Source of the DNA: Gemmatimonadales bacterium
GTDB taxonomy: Bacteria > Gemmatimonadota > Gemmatimonadetes > Gemmatimonadales > GWC2-71-9
NCBI GenBank assembly: GCA_035488835.1
Contig: DATHKX010000205.1
Coordinates: 9,686-73,685 of the forward strand
Direction: 5' to 3'
DNA length: 64,000 bases
The notes beneath the pieces are model-generated. The model ran no database searches and had not been told where the DNA came from. It saw nothing but the letters and a program-made list of their open reading frames with translations. A program made the translations under genes and the position numbers. Positions 4,320 through 62,299 of the stretch are shown here, in pieces (the stretch's first letter is position 1; each line of letters begins with the position of its first letter).

Positions 4320-6977
4320 CTACTCTTTGGGTGTCAGCAGCTCCTGGTACGCCGGGTAGTCACGCAGCGACCGGAGCGACGGGTAAAGGTGCATCACCCC
4401 GCCGCGTGGATACCCCTGGGCAAACGCCTCTTGCACCAGCGCGACGGCGGCGTCACGGTCGCCGAGGACGGCGTGGATCCGAGCCCGCCACATCGTGTGC
4501 CTGCCGTAGAGATACCGGGGGCTCATCGCCTGAAGCGTGCGCTCGAACCCCATCGCGTCAGCACGCCTCTCCTGGCGCGCCGCTAGCACTCCCAGAAAAC
4601 CCTGGACGGTCACCCGATCGGGCGAGTCGCCCGTGATGACCGCGATCCACCGCATAGTGGCGTAGTCCGGCACGCCCGCCGCCCGCTCCGACGCGAGACC
4701 CTCGAGCATGCGCCGCGCGTCGTCGACGCGGCCGTTCACGTAGTACGCGAGGGCGAGACGAAACCGGTTGGCCACCGAGCTCACCTCCGCGGGCGGCCGA
4801 CCTTCCAGCCAACGCACGGCCCACCCGCCGGCGGCGGGCGCGTCCGCTTGGTGATCGTGCGCCGCCAGCTCGAGCGCCGCGATCAGGGCGATGTCGGCGG
4901 GGGACCAGCCCGGCTGTGGCGGGAGACTGGGCGCATCGATCAACCGCTCGTTGATCTCGGCGGCCCGCCCCAGGGCGGCGAGCGCCCGGACCTCGGCCGC
5001 GAGCACGGCGAAGTCCGCGGGGTGGCGCCGCCGTCCTTCGCGCGCCTCCTGCAACTCGCGGCGGTGATCACCCACCAGGTGGTAGCCGAAGGTCAGGTAG
5101 AACCAATAGACCGACCAGCCGCGGAACAGGCCGCGATCGGGCCCGAGGGTGGTAAGGGCGGCGATCATTTCCCGCGGGCGATTGAGCGCCAGCGCACACT
5201 GCGCCACCAGCCACAGTACCTCGGAATTCGGCGCGATGGCGGCCATCTCGCGCGCCGTCTCGAGCGCTCGCTGCCGGTCGCCCCGGCTCTGGACGAGCAC
5301 CCACGCGAGGTAGTGCTGGTCGAGTGGAGAAAGGCGGCCGGGAGAGCGCTCCACCGCGTGCGCGATCGAGTCCGCCGTGGCGAATTCCCCCAAGTCCATG
5401 TGCTCGTGCGCTGCGAAGATCAGCGGCAGACGGAAGGTCGGGTCCTCCTGCGCGGCACGCCGGAAGTGGTCGATGGCGCCGCGTGAGTCGAACTGTACCA
5501 TCCGGTCTAGCCCCTGGATGAACTCCTGGTACGCCGCGAAGGTGGGCGGCTGGCCGGCGGCCTTGGCCCACAGGCTCAAGCGCGAGTCGAACAGCGTCGC
5601 GAGCGTGGCCATCACCCGCTGCCGGACGGCTTCCACGGCGACGAGCGGCTGCGAGATCGGTCCCGCCACCGGCTCGAGCGCGCGCAACACCGTGCCGTCC
5701 GTCGCCGCGGAGATTTGGACCTGGAACCGGATGCTGTCCGCCTGGCGATAGTAGGCCCCGGAGACCACCGTGCCCGCGCCCGTCTCGCGCCCCAGGGTCT
5801 GAATCCCGGCGGCGTCGAGATGGCCCGAGCTGTGCCCGCCCGGCGCGACCGACGCGGTCATCACCGACATCGACGACACCACTTCCACCAGGCCCGTCTG
5901 CGCGAGGCCCTGCGTCACCCAATCGGCCGCCATGTGGCCCACGTTGTCGAGCGAAGGGTCCCCAGTGTGGTTCTCGATCACGGCCACGACCACGCGATGC
6001 TGGTTGAGCTGCGATCCGCTACGACGCAGCACGTGAGCCGCGGTGCCGACGCCGAGCAGCGCGACCACAATCCCCAGGGCGAACGCGATTTTGCGTCCCC
6101 GCCGGCCGTCGAAAATGCCTCGCGTCGGCACGCTCGCGCGATAGGCCGGTGCTCCGAGCGCGGCCGCGAACTCGGTCACGGCGGGGAACCGGTCATCGGG
6201 CAGCGGGGCCAGAGCGCGAGAAATCGCGTGCTTGACGGCCCGCGCGACCGCCCCCGGGGCCCCCTGCAGGGCCCGGCTGGTCTCGAGCGCCGCCCAGTTG
6301 TGCACCCGGCGTTCCGTCATGCTCGCCACCGGCGGCTCCCCCGCCAGCATCTCGAACAGCACGCAGCCGAGGCTGTAGATATCGGTCCGTACGTCGAGGT
6401 CGCCGAGCCCCATCGCCTGCTCCGGGCTCATGTAGCCGGGCGAGCCGATCGGCTGGCCGGCCTGGGTGAGCGTCAGACTCCCGGCGGCGCTGATGGCGCG
6501 CGCGATCCCGAAGTCGGCCACGATCGCGTGCACGCCCGACAGCAGGATATTCTCCGGCTTGATGTCGCGGTGGATGATCCCCTGTGCATGGGCGAAGGCG
6601 AGCGCATCGGCGACGTCGCTGGCGATGTGCAGCGCGTCTTCGAGCGGCAGCTTCCGGTCCCGGAGCAGGCGATGCCGCAGCGATTCCCCCTCCACGTACG
6701 GCATGACGTAGTAAAACAACCCCCCCACTTCTCCGGCTGAAAAAATCGGCACGATATGGGGATGGCTGAGGTTCGAGGAGAGGTCCACTTCGCGAATGAA
6801 CCGCTCGCGCAAGAGGCGCGTGGACACTTCCGGGTCGAGCACCTTGATCGCGACCCGCCGGTGGGGATGCTGCTCCACCGCCAGGAACACCCGGGCCATG
6901 CCCCCGGCGCCGATTTCGCGCTCCACGTCGTAGCGGGGCGCCAGGCTCGCGCGCAAGGTCTCGAGCACGTCAACCAT
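4320..6977 (-). CDS. Ser/Thr protein kinase with one TM segment and a large TPR-like extracytoplasmic C-terminal domain
   Basis: GAGGMARVF glycine loop, VAIKVL, HRDIKPENILL, DFGIARA, GSPGYMSPE. Hydrophobic segment IAFALGIVVALLGVGTAA, then ~550 aa of helical repeat-like sequence. Confidence 0.9.
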   Translation of the reverse strand: MVDVLETLRASLAPRYDVEREIGAGGMARVFLAVEQHPHRRVAIKVLDPEVSTRLLRERFIREVDLSSNLSHPHIVPIFSAGEVGGLFYYVMPYVEGESLRHRLLRDRKLPLEDALHIASDVADALAFAHAQGIIHRDIKPENILLSGVHAIVADFGIARAISAAGSLTLTQAGQPIGSPGYMSPEQAMGLGDLDVRTDIYSLGCVLFEMLAGEPPVASMTERRVHNWAALETSRALQGAPGAVARAVKHAISRALAPLPDDRFPAVTEFAAALGAPAYRASVPTRGIFDGRRGRKIAFALGIVVALLGVGTAAHVLRRSGSQLNQHRVVVAVIENHTGDPSLDNVGHMAADWVTQGLAQTGLVEVVSSMSVMTASVAPGGHSSGHLDAAGIQTLGRETGAGTVVSGAYYRQADSIRFQVQISAATDGTVLRALEPVAGPISQPLVAVEAVRQRVMATLATLFDSRLSLWAKAAGQPPTFAAYQEFIQGLDRMVQFDSRGAIDHFRRAAQEDPTFRLPLIFAAHEHMDLGEFATADSIAHAVERSPGRLSPLDQHYLAWVLVQSRGDRQRALETAREMAAIAPNSEVLWLVAQCALALNRPREMIAALTTLGPDRGLFRGWSVYWFYLTFGYHLVGDHRRELQEAREGRRRHPADFAVLAAEVRALAALGRAAEINERLIDAPSLPPQPGWSPADIALIAALELAAHDHQADAPAAGGWAVRWLEGRPPAEVSSVANRFRLALAYYVNGRVDDARRMLEGLASERAAGVPDYATMRWIAVITGDSPDRVTVQGFLGVLAARQERRADAMGFERTLQAMSPRYLYGRHTMWRARIHAVLGDRDAAVALVQEAFAQGYPRGGVMHLYPSLRSLRDYPAYQELLTPKE

Positions 6978-7063
6978 GCGCGCAACTTAGCGGACCCTCG
7001 ACTGTGGGTCGAGCGGCACGACGGGCCCCTGGCCGATTTCGTCCCGCGAGCTAAAATGTCCCC

Positions 7064-8128
7064 GTGGACAGCAGAGGCTTGGCGCGATATTCCCCCTACG
7101 TGCGGCTGGCAGCGTACTACGTGCTGCTCGGCTTCGCGGTGTGGCTGCTGGTCAGGTTCGTGCCCAGCATCCCTCAGCTGTTGGAGCGGTTCCGAGAGGT
7201 CTCCCTCCTCGAAACGGTGGCCAGTCGCAACCGCCTGGTCGAGGAGGCGACGACGGCGGCGGCAAGCCTGTCTCAGGGCCAGTGGGCACTCGTCACCTTC
7301 CTGTCGATGCTCACGGCCCTGGTGCTCGTGCTGCCGGTCTCCTGGGTGTACATGCTGACCAAGCAGCGCTCGGGGTACGACCAGTCGGTGGTGCAGACCG
7401 TGATCATCCTGCCCATGACGGTGGCCGCGACGGTGATTTTGGTGCAGAACAGCCTGGCCCTCGCGTTCACGCTCGCCGCGATCGTCGCCGCGGTGCGGTT
7501 TCGCAATAACCTCAAGGACACGAAGGACGCGGTCTACATCTTCCTCGCGCTCGCGGTCGGCGTCGCCGCCGGCGTCTTCTCGCCCACCGTCGCGGCGGTG
7601 ATGTCCGTGATGTTCAACATCGTCGTGCTTGCCTTGTGGGAGCTCAACGTGGGCAACATCTACGCGGACCAGCGGAACCGGATGCCGGCCCTGCCTCCCG
7701 CTGAGGGGTTGCTGGGTCCGCGCCGACGGGCCTCCGCGGCGCTGGCCGTCGGCGATCCCGACTTGCTCGCGGCGCTCGCGCCCCACGAGCTCGAGGAGGT
7801 GGCGGACCGCGCCGCCCGCCTGCAGGCCTACGTCATGGCCCGCTCGGGCGACAAAAAAGAGGATCGGTTCAACGGCATGCTGCTCGTCCACACGACACAG
7901 CCGGAAGCGGCTCAGCGAGTCGCCGAGGAGCTCCTGCAGCTCCAGGCCCAGCGCTGGCGGCTGGCCGAAATCGTGCCGGCCGAGCAGGGTCGGTCGTCGC
8001 TCGAATACCTCATCCGGCTCCGCGACGAGTTCCTGCCCGCCACCCTCCTCGACGCCCTCAAGGGGCGTGGCAGTCCCCCCATCGACGCCGCCGAGTACCG
8101 TTCGCTTCGCGGCTTGAAGAAACGCTAG
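7064..8128 (+). CDS. DUF4956-like polytopic membrane protein with a soluble C-terminal domain
   Basis: GTG start. Several TM helices and the motif AIVAAVRFRNNLKDTKDAVYIFLALAVGVAAG, which I recognise as the DUF4956 core (xRFR..KD..D..Y.F). This family typically neighbours VTC/CYTH polyphosphate-domain genes. First gene of a tightly packed plus-strand operon. Confidence 0.6.
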   Translation: MDSRGLARYSPYVRLAAYYVLLGFAVWLLVRFVPSIPQLLERFREVSLLETVASRNRLVEEATTAAASLSQGQWALVTFLSMLTALVLVLPVSWVYMLTKQRSGYDQSVVQTVIILPMTVAATVILVQNSLALAFTLAAIVAAVRFRNNLKDTKDAVYIFLALAVGVAAGVFSPTVAAVMSVMFNIVVLALWELNVGNIYADQRNRMPALPPAEGLLGPRRRASAALAVGDPDLLAALAPHELEEVADRAARLQAYVMARSGDKKEDRFNGMLLVHTTQPEAAQRVAEELLQLQAQRWRLAEIVPAEQGRSSLEYLIRLRDEFLPATLLDALKGRGSPPIDAAEYRSLRGLKKR

Positions 8129-8134
8129 GGGACG

Positions 8135-9301
8135 GTGAGGCCTTCGGCGTGGCACCTTGCCGCCCTGGCGACGCTGTGCATCGGGCTGCCGGGATGCGGC
8201 CACGCGAGGGCGGTAAGTGCCGCTCCGGGCGCGGCGCCGCCGGCGCCTCCCGCGGAGATCGACGTTACCCTCTTTCTCATTGGGGACGCGGGCGCGCCGG
8301 CCGCGCCGCCCGACTCGGAGCCGGTGTTCATGGCGCTCCGGGCCGCCGCCACCTCCGCGCGGCACGCGGTCATCGTATTCCTGGGCGATAATGTCTACCC
8401 GAGCGGCATGCCGGACTCGGCGGCGCCCACCCGAGCCGCGGCCGAGCGCAGGCTCATGCAGGCGCTGCACGTCGTACGGGCGAGCGGCGCCCGCGGCTTC
8501 CTCGTGCCCGGCAATCACGACTGGGACAGCATGCAGCCGGGCGGCTGGGACGCGGTCCTGCGCCAGGAGCGGTTCATCGCCGCCGCGGGCGGCGGTCCCG
8601 CACTGCTGCCGGCGGGCGGCTGCCCGGGACCGGCCGTCGTGGACGTCGGAGCGGTCGTGCGGCTCGTGGCGCTCGACAGCCAGTGGTGGCTGCAGGACGG
8701 ACCGAAGCCCGCAGGCCCCACGTCGTCGTGCCCGGCCGCCACCGAGGGCGCCGTGATGGATTCCGTGCGAGCGGCACTGCGAGCAGCCGGCAATCGTGCC
8801 GTGGTCGTGGTGGCCCATCATCCGCCGGCGAGTGGTGGCGTACACGGCGGGCACTTCGGGTGGCAGGATCACATCTTCCCGCTGCGCAACATCAAGTCGT
8901 GGCTCTGGATTCCGCTCCCCATCATCGGCTCGCTGTATCCGATCGCGCGCGCCGAGGGAATCTCCAGCCAGGACATCCCCAGCCGCGCGTACACCCGCAT
9001 GCGCGTGGCACTCGACAGTGCGTTTGCGGGCGCTCCGGCTCCGCCGCTGATCTACGCGGCGGGCCACGAGCACACGCTGCAGGTGATCGCGGGCACGAGC
9101 ACGCGTTACGTGCTCGTGAGCGGCACCGGCACGTTCGGCCACTTCGACCGCGTCACGGCGCTCGACAGCACCCGGTTCGCGCGCAGCGCCAGCGGATTCA
9201 TGCGGGTCGAGTTCCTGCGCGACGGCCGCGCCCGGCTGGGCGTGATGATCGTCGATCGCGCCGGCACCGCGACGGAGGAGTTCGGACTATGGCTCAATTG
9301 A
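8135..9301 (+). CDS. Lipoprotein metallophosphoesterase (calcineurin-like)
   Basis: Signal plus lipobox (LCIGLPGC). Metallophosphoesterase motifs FLIGDAG, FLGDNVY, VPGNHDW, VVVVAHHP and AAGHEHT. Starts 6 nt after the upstream stop. Confidence 0.85.
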   Translation: MRPSAWHLAALATLCIGLPGCGHARAVSAAPGAAPPAPPAEIDVTLFLIGDAGAPAAPPDSEPVFMALRAAATSARHAVIVFLGDNVYPSGMPDSAAPTRAAAERRLMQALHVVRASGARGFLVPGNHDWDSMQPGGWDAVLRQERFIAAAGGGPALLPAGGCPGPAVVDVGAVVRLVALDSQWWLQDGPKPAGPTSSCPAATEGAVMDSVRAALRAAGNRAVVVVAHHPPASGGVHGGHFGWQDHIFPLRNIKSWLWIPLPIIGSLYPIARAEGISSQDIPSRAYTRMRVALDSAFAGAPAPPLIYAAGHEHTLQVIAGTSTRYVLVSGTGTFGHFDRVTALDSTRFARSASGFMRVEFLRDGRARLGVMIVDRAGTATEEFGLWLN

Positions 9302-11868
9302 ACAGGGCGCGAGGGCGCTGGATTGGGTTCGGACTCGCGGCAGCGCTCACCCCTGTGGCCCTCGCCGGGCAGGCGACGGCGCCGGCCCGCGCGCCAACCA
9401 AGCAGACCGTGGTCGCGGGAGACCACTACCGCGCGGGGTGGTTGCATCGCCTGTTCCTGGGCTCGCATTACCGCGACCTGTGGGCGACGCCCCTCGACGT
9501 CGAGGTGCTCGACTTGTCCCGCTTCGCCGGCGGGCTCACCCCCGCCGGCTGTGGCGGCCGGCGGCAAACGAAGGTGCTGCGCCTGCTGGGCAAGGATGGG
9601 CGGCAGTACGTGTTCCGCTCGGTGGACAAGGATCCCACGTTGGCGCTGCCGCCCGAGCTGCGGGCGACCTTCGCCAAGAAACTGGTGCAGGATCAGATCA
9701 GCTCGGCGCATCCCGGCGCGCCGCTGGTGGTCGCCCCGCTGCTCGATGCCGCCGGCGTCATGCACGTGGAGCCGCGGATCGCCCTCCTGCCCGACGACGC
9801 GCGCCTCAGCGGGTTCGATTGCGTCCCCCCTGGCTTCAAACTCGGTATGATCGAGGAGCGCCCCACGGAGCCTCCGGACAACGATGAGGGATTCGCCGGG
9901 GCGGTCGAGCTCGCCGGGACGAAGAAGCTGTTCGAGCATCTCGAGCACAGCTCTCGCAACCGCGTCGACTCGCGCGCCTATCTCGCCGCTCGACTGGTGG
10001 ACGTCTTCATCGGCGACTGGGACCGGCATCAGGACCAATGGCGCTGGGCGCGCTTCGATTCCGGCGGCGTCCATTGGTGGCGCCCCATCCCGCGCGATCG
10101 CGACCAGGCGTTCGCGCGCCTCGACGGCGTGCTCCTGTATCTCACCGGGTACTACTGGCCCCAGCTCATCGGCTTCGGCGACAAGTACCCGAGCATCTGG
10201 CGCCTCACCTTCACCGGGCAGGTCCCCGATCGGCGGCTCCTCGTGGATCTCGAGAAGCCGGTGTGGGACTCAATCGCGCGGACGATCCAGGTGCGGCTCA
10301 CCGATTCCGTAATCGACGCTGCCGTGCGGCGGCTGCCGCCCGAGTACTATCGCAAAAGCGGCGCCGCCCTCACCCGGGCGTTGCACCAGCGGCGCAATCA
10401 CTTGTTGCAGGCCAGCGACCGCTACTATGCGCTGCTCGCGGGCGTCGTGGAGGTCCATGGGACCGATGAGCGCGATGTCGCCGAGGTCGAGCGTCTCGGC
10501 GGTGGACGCGTCTCGGTGCGCCTGTCGGCTGCGGGCGCGACAGCACCGTACTACCGCCGGACGTTCGACGGCCGCGAGACGGAGGAGATCCGCGTCTACC
10601 TGCACGGCGGGGATGATCGACTCGTCGTGCGCGGCGCCGCCCGATCGGGACGCGGCCCGCTGCTGCGGGTGATCGGAGGGGGTGGGGATGACGAGCTGAC
10701 GGACTCCTCGCGCGCCGGGGGGACGAAGTTCTACGACGACCGTGGGAACAACCGGTTCGTGCGAGGACCAGGGACGTCCGTGAGTCGACGGCACTACGAC
10801 GAGCCGCCGCGCGACACGTCGACGCTCGGCCGGCCGCGTGATTGGGGGTCACGCTGGATGCCCCTCACGTGGGTCGGCTACTCTCCCGACGTCGGGCTGC
10901 TCGTCGGCGGTGGTGCCAGCGGGACTGGGTACGACTTCCGACGACTGCCGTACAACTCGCAGGTGAGAGTGCGGGCCGGATATGCGACGGCCGCCCAAAC
11001 CTACCGCGCCGAGTTCACGGGCGAATTCCGCGGCATCGTGCCTCCGGTCGTCGTGACGCTCCAGATGCGTGCGTCGGGGATCGACGTCCTCCGATTCTAC
11101 GGCTTCGGGAACGAGACCCCTGACACGGGCTCGCAGAACTTCTACAAGGTGAAGCAGCAGCAGTACCTCGTCGCGCCTGCCCTGGCATTCTCACTCTCGC
11201 CGGCCGCGACGCTCTCGATCGGCCCCGTGCTCAAGTTCTCCCATACCAACCTCGTGGGCGGCACGTTCATCAACGTCGCGCGGCCCTACGGCGTCGAAGA
11301 CCTGGGGCAGGTCGGCGCCGCAGCGGACTTTCAGGTCGACACTCGGGACCAGCCGCGTGCCGCGCGCCGCGGGATCGCCTTTGGTTTCGGCGGGAGCTAC
11401 TACCCAGCGGCGCTGGACGTGACGGCGCCGTTCGGCGAGGGCCATGCCGAGGCGAGCTCGTACCTCACGGCCCACATCCCGCTGCAGCCGACGCTCGCCC
11501 TCCGGGTCGCCGGGAAGAAGGTTTGGGGCAGCTATCCCTTCTATGAGGCGGCGTATATCGGCGGGGCAACGACGGTGCGCGGCTTCGTGGAGCATCGCTT
11601 CGCCGGCGACGCCGCCCTGTACGGGAACGCCGAGCTGCGGCTGTCCGTCGCCAAGTTCTACCTGCTGGTCCCGGGCCAGCTGGGCGTGTTCGGCCTCGGC
11701 GACGCGGGACGCGTCTACCTGTCGGGCGAGACATCGGACCGCTGGCACGCGGCTGCCGGGGGAGGCGTGTGGCTCTCGTTCCTGAGTCCCGCCAACACGC
11801 TGTCCGTGGCCGCGGCGCATAGCGTCGAGGGTACGCGCCTGTACGTGAAAGCCGGGCTGGCGTTCTAG
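9289..11868 (+). CDS. Omp85/BamA-TamA family outer-membrane beta-barrel with a ~450-aa N-terminal domain of unknown function (kinase-like motifs)
   Basis: ATG at 9289 lies in the frame of ORF 8683..11868 and gives a signal peptide (GFGLAAALTPVALAGQA). The C-terminal third shows Omp85 hallmarks (IGGATTVRGF, alternating hydrophobic strands, terminal ...YVKAGLAF). The start overlaps the metallophosphoesterase stop by 13 nt. Confidence 0.75.
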   Translation: MAQLNRARGRWIGFGLAAALTPVALAGQATAPARAPTKQTVVAGDHYRAGWLHRLFLGSHYRDLWATPLDVEVLDLSRFAGGLTPAGCGGRRQTKVLRLLGKDGRQYVFRSVDKDPTLALPPELRATFAKKLVQDQISSAHPGAPLVVAPLLDAAGVMHVEPRIALLPDDARLSGFDCVPPGFKLGMIEERPTEPPDNDEGFAGAVELAGTKKLFEHLEHSSRNRVDSRAYLAARLVDVFIGDWDRHQDQWRWARFDSGGVHWWRPIPRDRDQAFARLDGVLLYLTGYYWPQLIGFGDKYPSIWRLTFTGQVPDRRLLVDLEKPVWDSIARTIQVRLTDSVIDAAVRRLPPEYYRKSGAALTRALHQRRNHLLQASDRYYALLAGVVEVHGTDERDVAEVERLGGGRVSVRLSAAGATAPYYRRTFDGRETEEIRVYLHGGDDRLVVRGAARSGRGPLLRVIGGGGDDELTDSSRAGGTKFYDDRGNNRFVRGPGTSVSRRHYDEPPRDTSTLGRPRDWGSRWMPLTWVGYSPDVGLLVGGGASGTGYDFRRLPYNSQVRVRAGYATAAQTYRAEFTGEFRGIVPPVVVTLQMRASGIDVLRFYGFGNETPDTGSQNFYKVKQQQYLVAPALAFSLSPAATLSIGPVLKFSHTNLVGGTFINVARPYGVEDLGQVGAAADFQVDTRDQPRAARRGIAFGFGGSYYPAALDVTAPFGEGHAEASSYLTAHIPLQPTLALRVAGKKVWGSYPFYEAAYIGGATTVRGFVEHRFAGDAALYGNAELRLSVAKFYLLVPGQLGVFGLGDAGRVYLSGETSDRWHAAAGGGVWLSFLSPANTLSVAAAHSVEGTRLYVKAGLAF

Positions 11869-11870
11869 GC

Positions 11871-14800
11871 ATGACGCCTGAGTGGAAGGCAGAGGTCCCG
11901 AGCCTGGACCTGCTGAACCGCATGGTGACAGATCCACTTCCGGTGGGCCTCAGCTCCGGTCTGGTAGAGCCGTTCTTCCAACGCGACATCTACTTCGACT
12001 CCGCCGACTGGACGCTGCGTCGGCGCGGCGTGAGCTGCCGGTTCCGTATCCGGGTCGACGACCGGCGCATCCTCACGCTGCGCACCATCGGTCGGTGGGA
12101 GGGCGGCGTCCCGTTGGTGTTGCCGCAGACATTCGAAGCCGAGGTCGCCGAGCTCGAAGGCGAGCAGGCGCTCGCCGGCACGTCCGACCCGGCGCGACGC
12201 CTGCGCTCCCTCATCGACCCGGCCCTGCTGTTGCCCCGGATCCAGTTCGAAACCGAGCGGCGCGTGCGGCACACCGAGGCCGGGTGGTTCTCGCGGGGAC
12301 GCTACGACGTCGTGTACGACGTCGTGACGGTCCGGAGCCGTCAGATGGCGGTGGCGTTCGAGGAGCTGAAGGTCCGGGAGCTCGCGCGGGGCCGGCCGGG
12401 CCTCGACCGCCTGGCCCAGGCATTTCAGGAGCGGTATGGCCTGCGCCCGTCGCTGGTGGGGAAGGTAGACCGGGCCGCCAAGCTGTTGCGCGATCTGGAA
12501 AGCGGCGCCCTGGCGCAGGTCGCCCGCGCCGGCCGGGAGGTGGTCGTGGTCGCTGTCGAGGAGGGGTCCGTCGCCATGCTGACGGAATCGACCTCGCTCA
12601 CGTTGCCCGTGCGAGGCGGTAGCGGCGAGGAGACGTGCCGTGAGATCCTGCGCGCCTTTTTCGGGAGCGCGGACGGACAGGTACGGTTCCTCGGCACGGC
12701 CCCTGGGGGGTTGGCGGGCACGAGACCGGTGCTCGAGGTCTGGCTGGCGCGGCGCGTCGCCGGGGGCGCCGGTGTCGCGGGACGAGTGCAGTGGCTGCCG
12801 TTCGACGACCTGCTCGCCGCGGCCGGTTCGCCCGGGCTACGCGACCCCCGGACGCTCGCAGCGCTCACGGTGGCGGCGCGGTCGGACGTGCTCGCCGGCT
12901 GGACGCGGGGCCCTGAGCCGGTGCGGGGTGCGGCGCCGGGCCCGGCGGGCGAGCGCCGGGTGCGACTGTCCGAATACGCGCTGCGCTCCCCCATTCCCGA
13001 CATCGACCACCCAGGAGCCGAGCACTTCCTGAACGGCGATCTGAGCCTGATCGAGTTCAACGCCCGGGTACTGGAGCTGGCGGAGGACACGAGCGTCCCG
13101 CTGCTCGCCCGGGTCCGGTTTCTGTCCATCCTGAGCGCGAACTTGGACGAGTTCTTCATGGTGCGTGTCGGCGCCCTGAAGCGCGCGGCGGCAAAAGGGG
13201 GCCCGGTGGAGGTGGGTGAGGGCGGTCTCGCCGCGGACGAGCAGCTCAACGCCATCGGAATCCGGGTGCGGGCCCTGCTCGAGCGACAGTCGCGCTGTTT
13301 CACCGACGTGTGCGTGCCGGCGCTCGCCGCGCACGGCGTCCGGATCCTGCGCTGGACGGACCTGGCGGCGCCCCAACGAGAGTCGCTGCGCCGCTACTTC
13401 TCGGAGGAAGTGTTCCCCTTGATCACCCCGCAGGCCATGACGCGGGCCCCGGGGCACCCCTTCCCGCTCATTCCCACCATGCGCCTGTCCCTCGCCGTCG
13501 TGGTGCGCGACGCCCCGGGCGGACCGATGCACTTCGCCTACTTGAAGGCGCCGGAGACGCTGCCCCGCTTCGTGAAGCTCGCGGACGGGAGCGGGTTCGT
13601 CGCGGTGGAGGACGTCATCCGCGCGAACCTGAGCCAGGTGTACCCGGGCCGATTCGTGGAGGAGGCGTACGCGTTCCGCGTCACGCGCGGCGCCGACCTC
13701 GAGCTCGACGAGCATCATGCGGTGAGCTTGCTGCAGGTGATTGATGAGGAAACCAAACGGCGGCCTTACGGTGCCGCGGTACGGGTGGAGATCGCCGGCG
13801 AGATGCCGGAGGCGGTACGGGAGCTCTTGCTGCGCGAGCTGCAGTTCGAGGAAGCAGCGGCGAGCAGCCCCCCCGGCGCGGGGGATCTGTATGCGGCGGA
13901 CGGCCTCCTCGACCTCGGAGCGCTGCGCGAGCTCGCGCGCCTGCCGCTCCCCGAGCTGGACTACCCGCCGCACCGGGGCGGCGCGCCGATCGAGGAGGGC
14001 CGGTCTATCTTCGCGATCCTGGCGGAGCGGGACATCCTGGTGCACCACCCCTACGACGCGTTCGAGGCCACGGTACAGCGACTCGTAGCCGAAGCCGCGG
14101 ACGACCCGGATGTCGTGGCGATCAGACTGACGCTGTATCGCGCGGGCGGCCGCTCGGATATCGTCGAAGCGCTGCTGCGGGCCGCGGGACGCGGCAAGGA
14201 AGTGTTCGTCTTTGTCGAGCTGAAGGCCCGGTTCGACGAGGAGCGCAACATCGAGTGGGCCAAAAAGCTCGAGCAGGCGGGCATCCGGGTGGTGTACGGC
14301 CTGGTCGAGCTCAAGACCCACGCCAAGATCGCGCTCATCGTGCGCCGCGAGCGCGACGGGATCCGACGTTACGTGCACATCGGGACCGGGAACTACAACG
14401 CCGCGACGGCGGCGCTCTATACCGATGTGGGGCTCCTGTCGGCCGACCCCGAACTCGGGGCCGACTTGAACGACCTCTTCAATGAGCTCTCAGGCTCGTC
14501 GCGGCCGCCCCAGACCGCCTTTCGGCGGATCCTGGTCTCACCCACCTACCTGGCGAATCGCCTGGTCGAGCTGATCGATCGAGAATCACAGCACGCTCGG
14601 GCAGGCCGCGACGCTCGGATTCGCGCCAAGCTCAACGGGCTCACCGATCCGGAGATCATCACGGCTCTGTATCGCGCGTCGCAGGCGGGCGTCGAGGTCG
14701 CGCTCGTCGTGCGGGGCGTATGCACGCTTCGTCCCGGCGTGGTGGGGCTGTCGGAACGCATCCGTGTCGTCAGCGTCCTCGGCCGGTTTCTCGAGCACGC

Positions 14801-15080
14801 GCGCATCTACGCCTTCGCCAACGATGCCGACGCCGAGTACTACATCGGCTCCGCCGATTGGCGGGTGCGGAACTTACGGCGGCGGGTGGAGGTGGTGACG
14901 CCGGTGCGGGACGCGGTCGCCCGCGCGCGGCTCGACGCCATTCTCGACGCGGAGCTGGACGACCCCACCGCCTGGGACCTCGATCCCGACGGCGGCTATC
15001 ATCGCCGCGCGCCGGCGCCCGGCCGGGATCCCCGAAGCTCCCAGGAGCGGCTGCTCGGTCTGGCCAGTGCCATTGCCTGA
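11871..15080 (+). CDS. ppk: Polyphosphate kinase 1 with an N-terminal CYTH (triphosphate tunnel) domain and a Nudix-like linker domain
   Basis: The C-terminal ~700 aa are canonical PPK1 (LSLIEFNARVLELAED, RFLSILSANLDEFFMVRV, two PLD-like HxK regions: ELKTHAKIALIVRRE, RFLEHARIYAF). The N-terminal ~200 aa match the CYTH pattern (EWKAEV..., QRDIYFDSADWTLRRRGVSCRFRIR, FEAEVAE, AFEELKVRE). Starts 2 nt after the OMP stop. Confidence 0.9.
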   Translation: MTPEWKAEVPSLDLLNRMVTDPLPVGLSSGLVEPFFQRDIYFDSADWTLRRRGVSCRFRIRVDDRRILTLRTIGRWEGGVPLVLPQTFEAEVAELEGEQALAGTSDPARRLRSLIDPALLLPRIQFETERRVRHTEAGWFSRGRYDVVYDVVTVRSRQMAVAFEELKVRELARGRPGLDRLAQAFQERYGLRPSLVGKVDRAAKLLRDLESGALAQVARAGREVVVVAVEEGSVAMLTESTSLTLPVRGGSGEETCREILRAFFGSADGQVRFLGTAPGGLAGTRPVLEVWLARRVAGGAGVAGRVQWLPFDDLLAAAGSPGLRDPRTLAALTVAARSDVLAGWTRGPEPVRGAAPGPAGERRVRLSEYALRSPIPDIDHPGAEHFLNGDLSLIEFNARVLELAEDTSVPLLARVRFLSILSANLDEFFMVRVGALKRAAAKGGPVEVGEGGLAADEQLNAIGIRVRALLERQSRCFTDVCVPALAAHGVRILRWTDLAAPQRESLRRYFSEEVFPLITPQAMTRAPGHPFPLIPTMRLSLAVVVRDAPGGPMHFAYLKAPETLPRFVKLADGSGFVAVEDVIRANLSQVYPGRFVEEAYAFRVTRGADLELDEHHAVSLLQVIDEETKRRPYGAAVRVEIAGEMPEAVRELLLRELQFEEAAASSPPGAGDLYAADGLLDLGALRELARLPLPELDYPPHRGGAPIEEGRSIFAILAERDILVHHPYDAFEATVQRLVAEAADDPDVVAIRLTLYRAGGRSDIVEALLRAAGRGKEVFVFVELKARFDEERNIEWAKKLEQAGIRVVYGLVELKTHAKIALIVRRERDGIRRYVHIGTGNYNAATAALYTDVGLLSADPELGADLNDLFNELSGSSRPPQTAFRRILVSPTYLANRLVELIDRESQHARAGRDARIRAKLNGLTDPEIITALYRASQAGVEVALVVRGVCTLRPGVVGLSERIRVVSVLGRFLEHARIYAFANDADAEYYIGSADWRVRNLRRRVEVVTPVRDAVARARLDAILDAELDDPTAWDLDPDGGYHRRAPAPGRDPRSSQERLLGLASAIA

Positions 15081-15687
15081 GCCGGCCGCGGCCCTCGTCG
15101 CGCTCGGGCTCGCCGGCCTGATGGCCGGCGCGCCACTCGGGGCGCAAGCGTGCCGGGAACCTCACTATCGTTGGACGCAGAAGACGGACACGGCGCTCGC
15201 CGACCTCGCCCCGCAAGCGACGTCCGTCTCGGCGATCCTCGCCACCTGGGCGCCCCCCCACCTCGGGCCCCGCGACCGTTGCGCTCTCCGCTCGGGGCGC
15301 GAGCTTGGGGTTTACAACGTCACCGGCTGGGTGCGGCGGGCCGACAAGTTCAAGGACGACGGCGACTGGCACGTCGAGCTGACCGAGCGGGCCGACAGTC
15401 CTTCCGATTCTTGCATCGTGGTCGAGATCCCGGCACCGAAATACAGCGCGCGCTACGCCTCGGCCCGGGCAGCGCTCGACTCGCTGATCGGCGACAGGAA
15501 GGTCCGGAGGAGCGGGGTCCTCGCCCGGCCGGCTCTGGCGCGTATCACCGGGGCCGCATTCTTCGACGGGCAGCATCGCCGCGGCGGGCGGCGGAGCGAC
15601 AAGATCGACGGCGAGCACGGGCGCTGTAACTCATCGGTACGGGCGCTGTGGGAGATTCATCCGGTGTACCGCGTCACCTCGCCCTGA
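15067..15687 (+). CDS. Secreted protein of unknown function
   Basis: GTG start overlapping the ppk stop by 14 nt. Signal-like N-terminus (AAALVALGLAGLMAGAPLGAQA). GC3-rich coding frame, four Cys residues, no motif I recognise. Confidence 0.55.
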   Translation: MPLPEPAAALVALGLAGLMAGAPLGAQACREPHYRWTQKTDTALADLAPQATSVSAILATWAPPHLGPRDRCALRSGRELGVYNVTGWVRRADKFKDDGDWHVELTERADSPSDSCIVVEIPAPKYSARYASARAALDSLIGDRKVRRSGVLARPALARITGAAFFDGQHRRGGRRSDKIDGEHGRCNSSVRALWEIHPVYRVTSP

Positions 15688-17201
15688 GCTCGCTCCACGC
15701 GATTCCTTCCCGCCTGCTTCGCGGCGTACAGCGCTGCATCGGCGGCGCCCCGCAGGTTCGCCACGTCCCGCACCGTGTCCGGGTAGGCGGCCACGCCGCA
15801 CGAGATGGTCAGGCGGTACGCCTCCCCGGTCCACCGCCACGTCGTGGACTCGACGGTCGCGCGGATGCGCTCGGCGACCTCGAGTCCCGATATCATGGGC
15901 GTGTGGGGCATCCACACCGCGAACTCTTCGCCGCCGATCCGCGCCACCAGGTCCTTGTCGCGCACCGCCGCCTCGAGGATGCGTGCCACGTGGCGTAGCG
16001 CCGCGTCGCCGGCAGCGTGCCCCAGCGTGTCGTTCAGCTGCTTGAAGAGATCGAGGTCCGCGTAGATCAACGTCGCAATCGGGGGCGCTTTGCTCCCATG
16101 CTGCGTCAGCGCGCGCTCGAGCTCGCGTCGGTTGCGGAGACCCGTGAGCGGGTCGCTCACCGCCCGCTGCTCCGCCTCGTACACCGCGCGGGCAGCGGGA
16201 AGGCGGGACCCCAGCTCCGCGACGAGACGCTGCAGCTGGTCGGCGACGGGCGTGCCTGGTGGGAGCTGGGGGCCCATCACCACCAGGGCGCCGATCACGA
16301 AGTGGCCGTCGAACAGCGGATAGGCGGTGCCGGCGCGATCCTCGCGGCGGCGGTCGGGGAGCGCACTGCCGAAGACGTCTTCCCCGCCGCGCGAGACCAC
16401 CGGCACTCCGGACGTGATGGCCCGGACCGCCGGCGCGGCGGACGGCAGCACGAGGCCGTGGAGCCGGTTGTCCGCCGCCGTCGATACCGCCACGACCCGC
16501 AGCGTGCCGCTCGCGGGTCCGATGGCCTGCAGCACGATCACCGCGCCGCGCTGGGTGAACTGCTGGGCCAGCAACACTCCAGCCTTGGCGATCCCCTCGA
16601 GCGTCTGTGCGCTGCCCGCGATCGCGGCGAGCTGCTTCGAGACCAGTTGGGCGGGATGCTCGCCAGATTCGTGCGACCGCGCGAGCCGCATCCCCGCGAC
16701 GATACGACGCAGCTCTTGGGTGACGGCCGCCGCTTTCTCGGGTGTGGCGTCCGGTTGCGGAAGCAGCAGCCCGGCGCCGAAGGGGAAGTCACCCACGGCG
16801 ATGTAGCTGCCGGCCGGATCGCGTGCGACGTGGGCCCGCCCGTCCACCGAGGCGAGTTGCACGAGGGCGGAGCCGCGCTGGCGGGCCGCGCCGTCCACCT
16901 CTTCCCTCCCGAGGACTTCGACCTCGCTGTCGTCGAGCCCCACGGCCCAGCCGGCCCGCGCCCCGTGCGCCCGGCGCAGCAGGTCCAGGGTGTGCTGGAA
17001 GTCGGACGGCCGGGTGAGGGTCTCGTCCGCCAGCCACACCCGCACCAGCGGTCCCAGCGCCAGCCCGGTCGCCGCGACGAAGCCACCGAGTGCTGCGACC
17101 AGCGGCCAGCCGTTCCCGCTCAGGACGGCCGGGACCACGGCGGCCAGGCCGAGCACGGCGAGTCCGCGCCCGACCCAGACGCCGGCTCGGGGGCCCTTCA
17201 C
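15657..17201 (-). CDS. Diguanylate cyclase (GGDEF) with an N-terminal membrane/sensor region
   Basis: [39 protein letters not shown] (active GGEEF). RDKD lies five residues upstream of GGEEF (RxxD I-site). N-terminal TM helices. The GTG start overlaps the larB stop (GTGA). Confidence 0.85.
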
Positions 17202-61411: not shown

Positions 61412-62299
61412 GTGACCCATACTCCTCCCCCGCCCACCGACCTACTCGGCCGCACGGTCGGCCCCTACGACCTCGAGCGTCTGCTCGGCCAGGGCGGCTT
61501 CGCCTGGGTGTTCGCGGGTCGGGAGCTGGACGGGACCGCCGTCGCCGTCAAGATCCTGATGCCGCGCTACGCCGGCGACCCCCAGTTCGAGAGCCGGTTC
61601 CGCAACGAAGCCGAAACCGCCCAGAAGCTCCAGCACCCGAACATCATCCGCATCCGATTCGTGGCGCGCTCCGGGAGTTACGTCTACTTCGCGATGGACC
61701 TGTGCCCGGACTCGCTCGCCGCGCGGCTCGAGCGCGAGGGCCCGCTCCCCGAGGCCGACATCGTGCGCGTCGCGGGCGACGTGGCCCGCGCGCTCCAGTT
61801 CGCGCACGCCCAGGGGGTAATCCACCGCGACCTGAAGCCCGACAACATCCTGCTCCACTCGGACGGGCGCGCCGTCCTCTCGGACTTCGGCATCGCGCGG
61901 GCCGTCTCGGGCTACGTGGCCTCCACCGGCGTGAACATGACGATCGGAACGCCGCAATACCTGTCGCCCGAGCAGGCCCAGGGGCGACCCCTCGACGCGC
62001 GCCTCGATTTCTACGCCCTGGGGGTCACGCTCTTCAAGGCGGCGATCGGCGAGGTCCCCTTCGCCTCCACCGATTGGTTCGAGCTGGCGCGAATGCACGT
62101 AGAGGCCGCTCCACCCTCGCTGCGGAAGAGGCGGCCGCAGCTGTCCAAGCGGTTCGAGCGCGTGGTGATGAAATGCCTCGCGAAGCATCCCGACGATCGC
62201 TACCGCGATGCTGCCGCGCTGCTCGCCGATCTCGCGGCGGTGGACGGAACGGCCCCGGCGGGGTTGCTGGCGCGCTGGCGGGACTGGTGGTCAGGCTGA
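61412..62299 (+). CDS. Ser/Thr protein kinase (catalytic domain only)
   Basis: [45 protein letters not shown] start. Confidence 0.85.

Follow-up and report, generated by a model that had tools for sequence, protein, structure and literature searches.

A conserved set of secreted CotH proteins, polyphosphate (polyP) polymerase-like proteins and DUF4956 proteins has been described in the literature. When the genes of this triad were deleted in Streptococcus intermedius, no clear phenotype was seen. A DUF4956 protein has been described as carrying four transmembrane (TM) segments plus an ACT domain, and DUF4956 was placed by others in the MgtC family; MgtC is a regulator and not a channel. The association of DUF4956 with CYTH or VTC proteins, invoked by the initial annotation of the present locus, was found in the literature and at one of the loci collected here (L073). 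In Larkinella, a bona fide CotH-VTC-DUF4956-DUF2490 cluster was located 1.5 kb from a gene in which metallophosphoesterase, kinase-like domain and Omp85 barrel are fused. Literature searches for a described system with the composition reported below returned no paper, in agreement with the initial annotation.

The window comprises the whole 64,000-nt stretch of Gemmatimonadales DNA that was analysed. Positions 7064-15687 hold five plus-strand genes (g1 to g5), spaced by +6, -13, +2 and -14 nt. Within the called frames of the five ORFs, GC3 was 0.855-0.90, and a scan of the plus strand inside the cluster found no intrinsic-terminator-like site. The earlier calls of all five genes, and their close spacing of the translational-coupling type, were borne out by the ORF coordinates and Pfam, as were the domain assignments: DUF4956, metallophosphoesterase, Omp85 barrel, CYTH-PPK1 and a secreted fifth product to which no family was assigned. 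Because of an in-frame TAA at 7052-7054, g1 can start no earlier than GTG 7064. The 86-bp divergent intergenic region (6978-7063) is the presumed promoter region of the operon and of the neighbouring kinase gene; a sigma-70 consensus scan of it gave no match, such a scan being uninformative for this phylum.

The first gene, g1 (7064-8128, plus strand, 354 aa), encodes an inner-membrane protein that was assigned, as before, to DUF4956 (PF16316, 44.8 bits; gathering cutoff 30.6). Five to six hydrophobic segments were counted, including an extra N-terminal TM segment. The DUF4956 core (residues ~75-204) bears an invariant (V)RFRN..KDTKD motif in the family alignment, and this motif was aligned by hhalign with the canonical DUF4956 protein of L073 (E 3.4e-5). 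At the C-terminus lies a conserved soluble module (about 150 aa); its final ~90 residues would follow a beta-alpha-beta-beta-alpha pattern and may be ACT-like. Divergent from the operon, a Hanks-type Ser/Thr kinase with TPR repeats is encoded on the minus strand (4320-6977; Pfam Pkinase, 154.7 bits). Hydropathy analysis indicated one TM segment (residues ~296-318), followed by a large extracytoplasmic C-terminal part that contains the TPR repeats. A homologous kinase adjoins DUF4956 or the cluster at further loci (L001, L003-L005, L009, L011, L015, L021, L028, L031, L057, L084-L088), and the kinase is likely a regulator of the cluster.

The product of g2 (8135-9301, plus strand, 388 aa) had been called a lipoprotein metallophosphoesterase. 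This call held, with a Pfam Metallophos score of 22.4 bits (gathering cutoff 21.5) and an LPGC lipobox, of which 'AC' is kept in homologues and the Cys is conserved. The more specific assignment had been missed: judged from its sequence, the protein is a purple-acid-phosphatase (PAP)-type enzyme. Its profile matched human and pig purple acid phosphatase/TRAP (E 2e-10 to 1e-9), and the motifs GDxG (50-53), GDxxY (84-88), GNHD (126-129), HH (228-229) and GHxH (310-313) are invariant. At eight loci, a PAP-type enzyme is fused in frame to the g3 family, which was confirmed by Pfam for L073; phosphatase-kinase-Omp85 fusions occur in Cytophagales, Sphingobacteriales and Rhodothermales. Since otherwise identical operons (L087/L088) are devoid of the phosphoesterase, it was considered accessory.

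The third gene, g3, was called at 9289-11868 (plus strand) with an ATG start, the mechanical ORF beginning at 8683. Three things support this start: a GGAGG that precedes it by about 10 nt, the size of the homologues (850-866 aa) and the gene calls in related contigs. The signal-like N-terminus and leader, MAQLNRARGRWIGFGLAAALTPVALAGQATAPA, span residues 1 to ~37 (9289-9399), and homologues start at the same place. Residues ~38-384 (9400-10440) were modelled with AF2 at high confidence (model m51ed1a68cad0; pLDDT 94.7, pTM 0.93). In a Foldseek search of this model against the PDB, essentially all of the top 40 matches were kinase-fold proteins, the best being CotH (5jda/5jd9, E 3e-5), CtkA (3akk), HipT and PI4KIIalpha, with Fam20C also among them. 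As modelled, the N-terminal ~350 residues of g3 thus have an atypical protein-kinase-like fold that was previously unrecognised. The domain contains a Gly-rich loop (G81-G90), the invariant residues R110 and K114, a catalytic-loop-like stretch (G242-D243-W-D245-R246-H247-x-D-Q250-W251) and a DFG-like stretch (P-R-D270-R-D272-Q-A-F); the catalytic-type residues are invariant or nearly so in 131 sequences of 38-89% identity. Homology to CotH was not detectable at the sequence level (hhalign E 0.16; Pfam CotH in 1 of 28 members, E 0.16). The domain family is large, with 3211 clusters when grouped at 50% identity, and its members are spread over the FCB group and Acidobacteriota.

An all-beta linker domain (residues ~385-524; 10441-10860), whose topology in the AF2 model is not that of POTRA, connects the kinase-like domain to an Omp85-type beta-barrel (residues ~525-859; 10861-11868). 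Pfam Omp85 matched residues 556-841 only, with 27.5 bits (cutoff 24); ShlB gave 21.5 bits, and NCBIfam Omp85_fam gave 67.7 bits, under its cutoff. Foldseek matched the full-length model, which is of low confidence (pLDDT 61.6), to the barrels of BamA, Sam50, TamA and FhaC (E 1e-7 to 1e-5). An L6-type T-V-R764-G765-F766 motif is present, with R764 and G765 nearly invariant. A search of 28 family members at E values up to 5 matched no POTRA family. The initial annotation had described an Omp85-type barrel with a large novel N-terminal domain; the barrel was confirmed, whereas the kinase-like nature of the domain had gone unrecognised. With POTRA absent and an N-terminal domain of kinase fold, g3 is no ordinary BamA/TamA paralogue, an assignment that the initial annotation had named as one that would refute it.

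The fourth gene, g4 (plus strand), encodes a cytoplasmic, complete PPK1 with an N-terminal CYTH domain. The CYTH (triphosphate-tunnel) domain (residues 1 to ~205; 11871-12485) scored 28.6 bits in Pfam (gathering cutoff 23.2), and its profile aligned with the TTM domain of E. coli YgiF (5a60, E 0.012). Charged tunnel-lining residues are conserved in an alignment of 14 homologues; the first strand reads E-x-K/R-x-E/D where catalytic CYTH enzymes canonically have ExExK. A middle domain (residues ~206-385; 12486-13025) with the invariant residues L245, P246, G250, G252, E253, R257, L288-E-V-W291 and W308 had no match in PDB and Pfam. The PPK1 part (13026-15080) has all four domains (N, middle, C1 and C2), each of which exceeded its Pfam gathering cutoff (PP_kinase_N 104, PP_kinase 151, C_1 235 and C 201 bits), and scored 734 bits against TIGR03705 (cutoff 466) and 823 bits against NF003921. 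A second, CYTH-less PPK1 lies near the cluster in L004, so the fused CYTH-PPK1 looks specialised.

The last gene, g5 (15067-15687, plus strand, 206 aa), encodes a small secreted or periplasmic protein of an unnamed family with a signal-like N-terminus. Searches against Pfam, NCBIfam, PADLOC and PDB matched no family or structure, and none of its 447 homologues carries a Pfam domain or a name. C29, C72, C116, C187, H102, H170, H184, H198 and E196 are invariant, and invariant Asp also occurs. Where present, g5 is always the gene after CYTH-PPK1, also at 57-66% identity (L084-L088) and in L005 and L006. Because some operons (L001, L004) lack it, g5 was regarded as accessory.

The adjacency of these genes is far beyond chance; the cluster recurs, intact or rearranged, in many Gemmatimonadales contigs. 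Synteny well beyond the source lineage, which the initial annotation had named as its own test, was found: the order varies and the linkage is kept. In Gemmatimonadales, the kinase-Omp85 gene (family G3) keeps DUF4956, CYTH-PPK1 and a receptor Ser/Thr kinase in its vicinity despite reordering, e.g. DUF4956, Ser/Thr kinase, CYTH-PPK1, G3 in L009/L011 and metallophosphoesterase, G3, DUF4956, CYTH-PPK1 in L021. Among 84 G3 loci, DUF4956 was present in 24, a PAP-type enzyme in 30 (8 fused) and PPK1 in 21; for many G3 paralogues, the surrounding 10 kb held no gene for a polyP enzyme. PPK1 was located beside G3 in Ignavibacteria (L061, L062, L070), Cytophagales (L072, L078), Longimicrobiales (L054) and other Gemmatimonadota (L041, L048), so that the pairing appears in seven or more separate clades of the G3 tree. 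The PPK1 genes of Ignavibacteria and Cytophagales converge on G3 and are not co-transcribed with it; at an acidobacterial G3 locus, a PPK2 gene lies 39 bp downstream. The chance expectation was 0.66 PPK1 genes in the 1.33 Mb examined, and the Poisson probability of the PPK1 adjacency stays at <=6e-6 if the count is reduced to seven independent clades. Other recurrent neighbours were enzymes of phosphoester or phosphoanhydride chemistry (PAP2, a second metallophosphoesterase, a phytase-like propeller, His_Phos_1) and signalling genes (Ser/Thr kinases, GGDEF, class III cyclases, histidine kinases).

With slightly less than even confidence, the cluster is read as one functionally linked, envelope-spanning phosphotransfer module tied to polyP synthesis, a diderm counterpart of the triad. 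CYTH-PPK1 would synthesise polyP on the cytoplasmic side of the inner membrane, with the CYTH tunnel domain docking the chain or the chain end onto DUF4956, which might hand polyP, or derived phosphoryl or energy equivalents, to the periplasm. In that compartment, the kinase domain held by the barrel would phosphorylate a protein, lipid or glycan of the envelope, and the PAP-type phosphatase would undo this modification or trim polyP. The barrel would tether the catalytic domain to the outer membrane and might let substrate or product through as well, while the divergent transmembrane Ser/Thr kinase would sense the periplasm and regulate the module. We infer the passage of polyP over the inner membrane, the phosphoryl donor and the identity of the substrate. 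Against the transfer step stand the only five to six TM helices of DUF4956, which has no demonstrated transport activity, and its relative MgtC being a regulator. To our knowledge, all characterised protein-kinase-like enzymes use nucleotides and polyP as donor is without precedent; the g3 domain, too, keeps the Gly-rich loop typical of nucleotide binding. The altered ExExK motif, the lack of detectable CotH homology in sequence, the many G3 paralogues remote from polyP enzymes, the dispensability of phosphatase and g5 in close relatives, the convergent PPK1-G3 pairs and the lack of a clear phenotype in S. intermedius also argue against the phosphotransfer module.

Three other readings were each judged unlikely. 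The first, essentially the initial model and purely conjectural, is polyP export or trimming across the envelope: PPK1 would make polyP, DUF4956 would move it over the inner membrane for export or surface deposition, the barrel would be the outer-membrane pore, the kinase-like domain would bind or ratchet the anionic chain instead of phosphorylating a substrate, and the PAP-type enzyme would set the chain length. One component per envelope layer, the linkage to a polyP synthase and the invariant Arg residues flanking the catalytic-type Asp (R110, R235, R246, R269, R271, R368, R369) are consistent with it, as is the release of polyP by unknown routes that is reported for some bacteria. However, the invariant set of Gly-rich loop, Lys/Arg, D-x-D-R-H..Q and D-R-D points to catalysis and not to binding alone, and Omp85 barrels with the L6 VRGF motif are, as far as we know, associated with polypeptide or insertase roles and not with polyanion export. 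With the kinase-like fold recognised, the picture shifts from a polyP pipe to a kinase and a phosphatase that act outside the cytoplasm in one module with a polyP synthase, in parallel with the CotH-VTC-DUF4956 triad.

Equally doubtful is phosphate scavenging and storage, in which extracytoplasmic phosphatases (the PAP-type enzyme and, in relatives, a phytase-like propeller and PAP2) would free phosphate from organic or condensed phosphates at the outer membrane, PPK1 would store it as polyP, the kinase-like domain and the receptor Ser/Thr kinase would sense or regulate, and nothing would be exported. The recurrent PAP-type, PAP2, phytase-like and second metallophosphoesterase neighbours are classic scavenging classes, and PPK1 and PPK2 are enzymes of storage and mobilisation; yet genes for Pst, PhoU, PhoB/R and porins did not recur among the conserved G3 neighbour clusters, and this reading gives no role to DUF4956 or the PPK1-fused CYTH and leaves the CotH-VTC-DUF4956 parallel unexplained. 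Similarly improbable is a nucleotide-dependent envelope kinase/phosphatase switch only regulated by polyP, with periplasmic ATP or GTP arriving by another route and PPK1/CYTH and DUF4956, in the cytoplasm and inner membrane, co-expressed with the envelope module as an MgtC-like regulator of stress or energy state. Use of a nucleotide is suggested by the kinase-type motifs and the Gly-rich loop, and the MgtC assignment and recurrent signalling genes fit a regulator, but we know of no source of periplasmic nucleotide triphosphate, and the linkage of G3 to CYTH-PPK1, plain PPK1 and PPK2 across phyla is tighter than a loose regulatory tie would lead one to expect. Chance adjacency of a BamA/TamA paralogue and a housekeeping PPK1, suggested by the public annotation of g3 homologues as 'BamA/TamA family outer membrane protein', is scarcely credible in view of the missing POTRA, the kinase-fold domain and the apparently specialised PPK1 (L004), and is effectively refuted by synteny that persists through rearrangements and fusions over several phyla.

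The phosphotransfer module tied to polyP synthesis remains the preferred reading, and a conserved cluster of this kind in soil Gemmatimonadales suggests extracytoplasmic phosphate chemistry tied to polyphosphate made inside the cell. The uncharacterised triad of monoderm bacteria and Bacteroidota consists of a CotH kinase, a VTC-like polyP polymerase and DUF4956, whereas the Gemmatimonadales cluster combines a kinase-like Omp85 protein, CYTH-PPK1 and DUF4956 with a PAP-type lipoprotein; the reading we favour makes it the equivalent of the CotH/VTC/DUF4956 triad in diderm cells.

Five plus-strand open reading frames were resolved at window positions 7064-8128 (g1), 8135-9301 (g2), 9289-11868 (g3), 11871-15080 (g4) and 15067-15687 (g5), spaced at +6, -13, +2 and -14 nt, the GC3 values being 0.855-0.90; the G+C content of the window is 65-73%. 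Close homologues of the window proteins belong to Gemmatimonadales metagenome bins. The mechanical ORF of g3 begins at 8683, and the real start was placed at the ATG at 9289 because it is preceded at about 10 nt by GGAGG, homologues have lengths of 850-866 aa, and the gene calls of related contigs begin at the equivalent codon with the same overlap with the preceding gene. Coordinates, GC3 and the start evidence for g3 thus confirmed the five genes at the spacings given in the initial annotation, whose domain calls were all backed by Pfam matches above gathering score, g5 belonging to no family, as had been noted there. An antisense ORF of 889 aa (6473-9142, minus strand) spans g1 and g2 and was rejected as a high-GC artefact able to mislead longest-ORF gene calling. 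Comparable antisense ORFs of relatives group together in an all-against-all BLAST; greedy longest-ORF tiling of high-GC loci chose some of them, and the resulting neighbour cluster 5 was discarded as spurious. No terminator-like hairpin was found by the terminator scan on the plus strand inside the five-gene cluster, the sigma-70 promoter and terminator scans of the cluster being uninformative, and the window yielded nothing relevant in scans for tRNA genes, Rfam families and tandem repeats.

The operon is adjoined by a divergent gene for a Hanks-type receptor Ser/Thr kinase (4320-6977, minus strand) with a single transmembrane segment at about residue 300 and a large extracytoplasmic domain. 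Two further Hanks-type kinase domains occur in the window at 61466-62203 (plus strand) and 36144-36806 (minus strand), with 41% and 36% identity, respectively, to the operon-adjacent kinase. At the other end, a GGDEF diguanylate cyclase gene (15657-17201, minus strand) is convergent with the operon, the overlap between its 3' end and the end of g5 amounting to 31 nt.

The N-terminal 530 residues of g3 matched no Pfam family and no PDB sequence, and a sequence-profile search of g3 against PDB sequences gave nothing below an E-value of 0.3. A full-length AF2 model based on 33 close homologues (pLDDT 61.6, kinase core below 50), for which Foldseek returned barrels only, was set aside and superseded by a model of the N-terminal domain from an alignment of 131 sequences with 38-89% identity (pLDDT 94.7, pTM 0.93). 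Foldseek comparison of this model with the PDB placed the Bacillus cereus CotH kinase (5jda/5jd9) first, with an E-value of 3e-5 and a probability of 1.0, the TM-scores being only 0.27-0.37. It was followed in order by Helicobacter pylori CtkA, a bacterial Ser/Thr kinase, PI4KIIalpha and HipT, with weaker matches to Fam20C, Rio2, COQ8 and antibiotic kinases. In effect, only protein-kinase-like folds were matched, and the domain is predicted from the model to have an atypical protein-kinase-like fold. The initial annotation had called it large and novel; it does lie outside known sequence families, while its fold, unrecognised then, is kinase-like according to AF2 and Foldseek.

Roles were proposed for g3 residues from conservation rather than from residue-level structural superposition. 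Candidate catalytic residues that are invariant or nearly so comprise a Gly-rich loop (G81-G90) and R110/K114, a candidate catalytic-loop motif (G-D243-W-D245-R-H-x-D-Q250-W) and a candidate metal-binding motif (P-R-D270-R-D272-Q-A-F). As a lead only, the patterns D-R-x-x-D-Q-W and D-x-x-x-A-F resemble PI4KII motifs, which we take to be DRxxDNW and IDNGxAF. The CotH HMM (PF08757) matched one of 28 members of the kinase-Omp85 family to which g3 belongs (here termed G3) at an E-value of 0.16, and alignment of the 131-sequence profile with bona fide CotH by hhalign likewise gave a non-significant E-value of 0.16; the relationship to CotH is therefore claimed at fold level only.

Downstream of the kinase-like domain, the model contains an all-beta linker. 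POTRA families were matched in none of the 28 G3 members at E-values up to 5, and the model is also without POTRA domains. The Omp85 profile of Pfam matched g3 at residues 556-841 only (27.5 bits, cutoff 24) and 21 of the 28 members (best E-value 5e-16), while the BamA equivalog TIGR03303 scored 13 bits against a cutoff of 297. Foldseek matches of the barrel to BamA, TamA, Sam50 and FhaC (E-values of about 1e-7) were obtained on the low-confidence full-length model. An L6-type motif, T-V-R764-G765-F766, is present, with R764 and G765 at least 90% conserved. The barrel is therefore a member of the Omp85 superfamily without POTRA domains. The possibility that g3 is an ordinary POTRA-bearing BamA/TamA paralogue, which had been named as a point to check, was excluded by the missing POTRA domains and by the kinase-like N-terminal domain. 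The N-termini of g3 and g5 are signal-type.

Homologues of the g3 N-terminal domain formed 3211 clusters at 50% identity with E-values of 1e-3 or lower, 1487 of them at 1e-30 or lower. The 150 best-scoring members are nearly all 820-910 aa long and therefore share the same architecture. Public annotation of the family reads 'BamA/TamA family outer membrane protein' or 'hypothetical', and no paper linking CotH-type kinases to Omp85 proteins or describing the G3 family was found in the literature. The predicted arrangement, in which an Omp85 barrel carries a kinase-like domain and in some members a purple-acid-type phosphatase in front of it, is a protein architecture that had not been recognised before.

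The assignment of g1 to DUF4956 (PF16316) in the initial annotation was borne out with 44.8 bits against a gathering score of 30.6, residues 87-204 covering profile positions 4-119 of 169. The core of g1 also aligned by hhalign to the canonical DUF4956 member of locus L073 (E-value 3.4e-5), a homologous locus which carries a canonical VTC-DUF4956 pair. Five to six hydrophobic or transmembrane segments are present, and a conserved C-terminal module with a beta-alpha-beta-beta-alpha sequence pattern, which may be ACT-like, lies outside the Pfam match. To our knowledge, no transport activity has been ascribed to DUF4956. The association of DUF4956 with triphosphate-tunnel domains recurs here, CYTH-PPK1 being encoded in the same operon as g1, and the two are linked together in 10 loci.

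The C-terminal 690 residues of g4 were firmly identified as PPK1 by NCBIfam (TIGR03705, 734 bits, cutoff 466) and by four Pfam domains at 104-235 bits. The CYTH domain scored 28.6 bits against 23.2 in Pfam; its profile aligns to the TTM domain of E. coli YgiF with an E-value of 0.012, and most of the charged residues lining the tunnel are kept. The ExExK signature is absent from this domain, the first strand being E4-W-K6-A-E8 in the window, with E-x-R-x-D/E at this place in 13 homologues, and the domain may bind tri- or polyphosphate rather than hydrolyse it. Between CYTH and PPK1 lies a conserved domain of about 170 residues (12486-13025, plus strand; residues ~206-385) with invariant LP..G.GE...R and LEVW motifs, which matched no Pfam or PDB entry. 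A search with CYTH plus linker gave 69 matches, essentially from Gemmatimonadota plus one Thermoanaerobaculia fragment, so that the CYTH extension on PPK1 is narrow in distribution; most of the matches are fragmentary and thus poor material for architecture. In a close relative, a second PPK1 without CYTH is located 1.6 kb downstream of the CYTH-PPK1 gene (L004:17364-19544, minus strand), which suggests that the fused form is a specialised paralogue. In L086, CYTH (5803-6345, 180 aa) and PPK1 (6342-8990, 882 aa) were called as separate overlapping genes, reflecting either a real split or an assembly frameshift.

The match of g2 to Pfam Metallophos was marginal (22.4 bits, just above the cutoff of 21.5). 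The five purple acid phosphatase (PAP) motifs GDXG / GDXXY / GNH(D/E) / VXXH / GHXH correspond in g2 to GDAG 50-53, GDNVY 84-88, GNHD 126-129, AHH 227-229 and GHEH 310-313. The ligand residues in GDxG, GDxxY, GNHD, HH and GHxH are invariant in 22 sequences, and the cysteine of the g2 lipobox is conserved among 22 homologues. The g2-family profile retrieved human and pig purple acid phosphatases (TRAP/ACP5; 1war, 2bq8, 1qfc, 1ute) with E-values of 2e-10 to 1e-9, and g2 is classified by sequence as a metallophosphoesterase of the purple-acid-phosphatase type. A Riemerella metallophosphoesterase, followed as a literature lead, was set aside; described as a T9SS effector, it has no evident link.

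To examine conservation of the neighbourhood, GTDB genomes, one for each species, were scanned with the kinase motif as pattern. At least 581 loci were confirmed, and the best 80 were taken, representing Gemmatimonadota, Ignavibacteria, Chlorobi-like bins, Calditrichota, Rhodothermales, Cytophagales, Sphingobacteriales, Chitinophagaceae, Eisenbacteria and Acidobacteriota. Neighbours were sought by tblastn and by iterated HMMs built from the window proteins. A PAP-type phosphoesterase was found near G3 in 30 of 84 loci, DUF4956 in 24, and PPK1 in 21, 14 of these with the CYTH extension. SdiA-regulated or phytase-like propellers (23/84), PycTM-type 2TM proteins, mostly with an HD domain (18/84), PAP2 (9/84) and His_Phos_1 (8/84) were also recorded.

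Among Gemmatimonadales the gene order differs while linkage is kept: two loci (L009, L011) have the order DUF4956, Ser/Thr kinase, CYTH-PPK1, G3, and another (L021) has phosphoesterase, G3, DUF4956, CYTH-PPK1. Outside this order, PPK1 adjoins G3 in Longimicrobiales (L054), other Gemmatimonadota (L041, L048), Ignavibacteria (L061, L062, L070) and Cytophagales (L072, L078). PPK2 (332 bits in Pfam) is a third type of polyphosphate (polyP) enzyme linked to the family, starting 39 bp after G3 on an acidobacterial contig (L081:3974-4849, plus strand) and 2 kb after G3 on a Gemmatimonadales contig (L038:14610-15500, plus strand). A single ORF of about 1250 aa encodes phosphoesterase and G3 as a fusion in Cytophagales, Sphingobacteriales and Rhodothermales; in the L073 fusion, Pfam placed Metallophos at residues 91-265 and Omp85 at 994-1222. 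In a 1335-aa library representative the kinase-like domain aligns at 474-1023, leaving space for a comparable N-terminal extension. The linkage reported for the operon is thus kept in related genomes, with rearrangements and fusions across phyla. In the 1.33 Mb examined, 0.66 PPK1 genes would be expected by chance under the generous assumption of two PPK1 per 4 Mb. The Poisson probability of the observed adjacency is 6e-23 for 20 loci and 6e-6 when only seven independent events are counted, PPK1-linked G3 genes occupying at least seven separate clades in a rough neighbour-joining tree of the kinase domains. Chance adjacency of the operon genes was excluded by the conserved synteny and these PPK1 statistics.

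Several additional gene types were observed next to G3. A beta-propeller gene of the SdiA-regulated or phytase-like type (about 290 aa) lies immediately upstream of G3 in the 23 loci carrying it, in Gemmatimonadota and other phyla (plus strand in L026:8991-9899, L070:9058-9927, L061:8624-9823, L073:8007-8861 and others); it is absent from the window. PycTM-type proteins, which resemble Pycsar/CBASS effectors, adjoin G3 in Ignavibacteria, Bacteroidota, Rhodothermales and one Gemmatimonadota bin (L072:7137-8405, minus; L073:6740-7990, plus; L070:15159-16400, minus; L034:12679-13323, plus; and 14 further loci). These proteins, most of them fused to an HD domain, often have class III nucleotide cyclases (L073:12523-13851, L036:8899-9963) or DUF2652 (L072:5874-7037) close by, and could serve as another inner-membrane partner or as a level of control through cyclic nucleotides. 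In Ignavibacteria and Cytophagales, a small SixA-like His_Phos_1 gene is located directly upstream of PPK1 on the same strand (minus strand in L070:14629-15129, L061:15542-16102, L072:15931-16470 and L078:15891-16562), the pair being convergent with G3. Tandem G3 duplicates are common (L006, L029, L035, L042, L050, L063, L065, L084, L086), with two copies each in L084 and L086, and some genomes carry several G3 paralogues (for example L007 and L022 from one bin).

The g5 family comprises 447 detected members, unnamed and without a Pfam domain; Pfam and PDB profile searches with g5 gave no credible match and no fold. Four invariant cysteines and several invariant His, Glu and Asp residues would fit a periplasmic protein that has disulfide bonds and a metal site or a catalytic site. 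At 57-66% identity, g5 still directly follows CYTH-PPK1 in operons without the phosphoesterase (L084-L088); two of these (L087, L088) have flanks like those of the window, with the Ser/Thr kinase and the same GGDEF and AIRC genes, and lack g2. Conversely, g2 is present and g5 absent in L001 and L004. Because g2 and g5 are independently absent in relatives, the core consists of DUF4956, G3 and CYTH-PPK1 with the divergent receptor kinase, and g2 and g5 are modular additions. The operon described in the initial annotation is real, and the description was incomplete with respect to the kinase-like domain of g3, the purple-acid type of g2 and the linkage across phyla.

The data directly support the inventory of parts, the compartments that follow from signal sequences and transmembrane segments, the conservation of candidate kinase-like and of PAP-like active-site residues, and the genomic linkage. 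In a mechanism that is hypothetical as a whole, CYTH-PPK1 would make polyP at the membrane and DUF4956 would link this synthesis to the periplasm. The barrel-anchored kinase-like domain would modify an envelope substrate, the PAP-type phosphatase would undo the modification or trim the polymer, and the receptor Ser/Thr kinase would act as regulator. The phosphoryl donor is the weakest step; we know of no protein-kinase-like enzyme that uses polyP. Possible, if rather unlikely, is a general role of polyP as a trans-envelope phosphoryl currency: the tunnel domain and a DUF4956 conduit, analogous to VTC, would supply cytoplasmic polyP to extracytoplasmic kinases (CotH in monoderms, Omp85-anchored in diderms), which would use it instead of ATP on envelope or matrix components, with the purple-acid-type phosphatase as eraser.

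Three other explanations were weighed. Export of polyP with the barrel as pore appears rather improbable beside the conserved kinase-like motifs. Phosphate scavenging combined with storage is viewed with similar doubt. Equally little credence is given to a link of regulation alone, in which polyP metabolism would be tied to an envelope kinase that depends on nucleotides. A defence-system reading of the core genes was unsupported, PADLOC giving no matches for g1, g2, g3 and g5; only generic models matched the PLD-like portion of PPK1 and the Ser/Thr kinase.

The phosphoryl source of bacterial kinases that work beyond the cytoplasm, and hence away from any ATP pool, would become testable. The same applies to the route by which polyP, made only in the cytoplasm, reaches the envelope or medium in bacteria reported to release it. 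The cluster physically joins PPK1 to a membrane protein and an outer-membrane kinase/phosphatase pair, and the same logic recurs in distant phyla with parts exchanged: VTC for CYTH, CotH for the new kinase family, PPK2 for PPK1. Interest is considered high because the tie between polyP synthesis and phosphoryl chemistry outside the cytoplasm is concrete and testable. A large unannotated family of more than 3000 clusters at 50% identity has been defined by its kinase-like domain on an Omp85 barrel, and experiments are feasible because the fused form occurs in cultured bacteria (Larkinella humicola, Nibribacter koreensis, Rufibacter psychrotolerans). Gemmatimonadota are polyphosphate accumulators of interest in phosphorus removal.

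The operon was compared with known systems. CotH, CtkA, Fam20C and PI4KIIalpha share fold matches with the g3 domain, and the first three also a signal peptide and action outside the cytoplasm, as predicted for g3. In contrast to all four, the g3 domain belongs to none of these families by sequence profile and is covalently joined to an outer-membrane barrel. Type Vd autotransporters such as PlpD, which consist of a patatin passenger, a POTRA domain and a 16-stranded Omp85-like barrel, likewise carry an enzyme domain N-terminal to an Omp85-type barrel in one polypeptide; g3 differs in having no POTRA domain and a kinase-like passenger, preceded in some phyla by a phosphatase. Mammalian tartrate-resistant acid phosphatase (ACP5), an extracytoplasmic phosphatase opposing a secreted kinase on the same substrates, has the five metal-ligand motifs in common with g2 (profile E-value 2e-10), whereas g2 is a bacterial lipoprotein or fusion domain and about 80 residues longer, with conserved insertions.

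The eukaryotic VTC complex, composed of the Vtc4 TTM polymerase and a transmembrane channel, resembles the operon in combining a tunnel domain, a polytopic membrane protein and polyP synthesis, which in VTC is coupled to membrane translocation. Yeast vacuoles also contain a metallophosphoesterase polyphosphatase, Ppn2. Unlike VTC, the operon uses PPK1 as polymerase, its coupling is hypothetical, and DUF4956 is unrelated to the VTC/DUF202-type transmembrane domain; Pfam searches of g1 and g4 matched no VTC (PF09359), SPX or VTC-type transmembrane channel domain. The resemblance is regarded as a functional analogy only.

The closest parallel is the triad of CotH kinase, VTC-like polyP polymerase and DUF4956, known from pel-associated genes of Streptococcus, Clostridium and Bifidobacterium, from NELoc-2 of C. 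perfringens and from Bacteroidota; deletion mutants gave no clear phenotype. In Larkinella humicola, a cluster of CotH (209 bits), VTC (97), DUF4956 (171) and DUF2490 starts 1.5 kb downstream of the fused phosphoesterase-G3 gene. Triad and operon alike bring together, in a conserved cluster, a DUF4956 membrane protein, a triphosphate-tunnel domain in the cytoplasm and, outside it, an atypical kinase, which in the operon is a predicted kinase-like domain. In the operon, however, the kinase-like domain falls outside Pfam CotH and is continuous with an Omp85 barrel, and the place of VTC is taken by CYTH (PF01928), which is fused to a full PPK1. Further additions are a PAP-type phosphatase, a receptor Ser/Thr kinase and g5, and the host is diderm. 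The operon presents the three functional elements of the triad in diderm form, with the kinase-like domain outside, the tunnel domain inside and DUF4956 between them. It is a new and widespread form of a gene association that had already been noticed but not explained.
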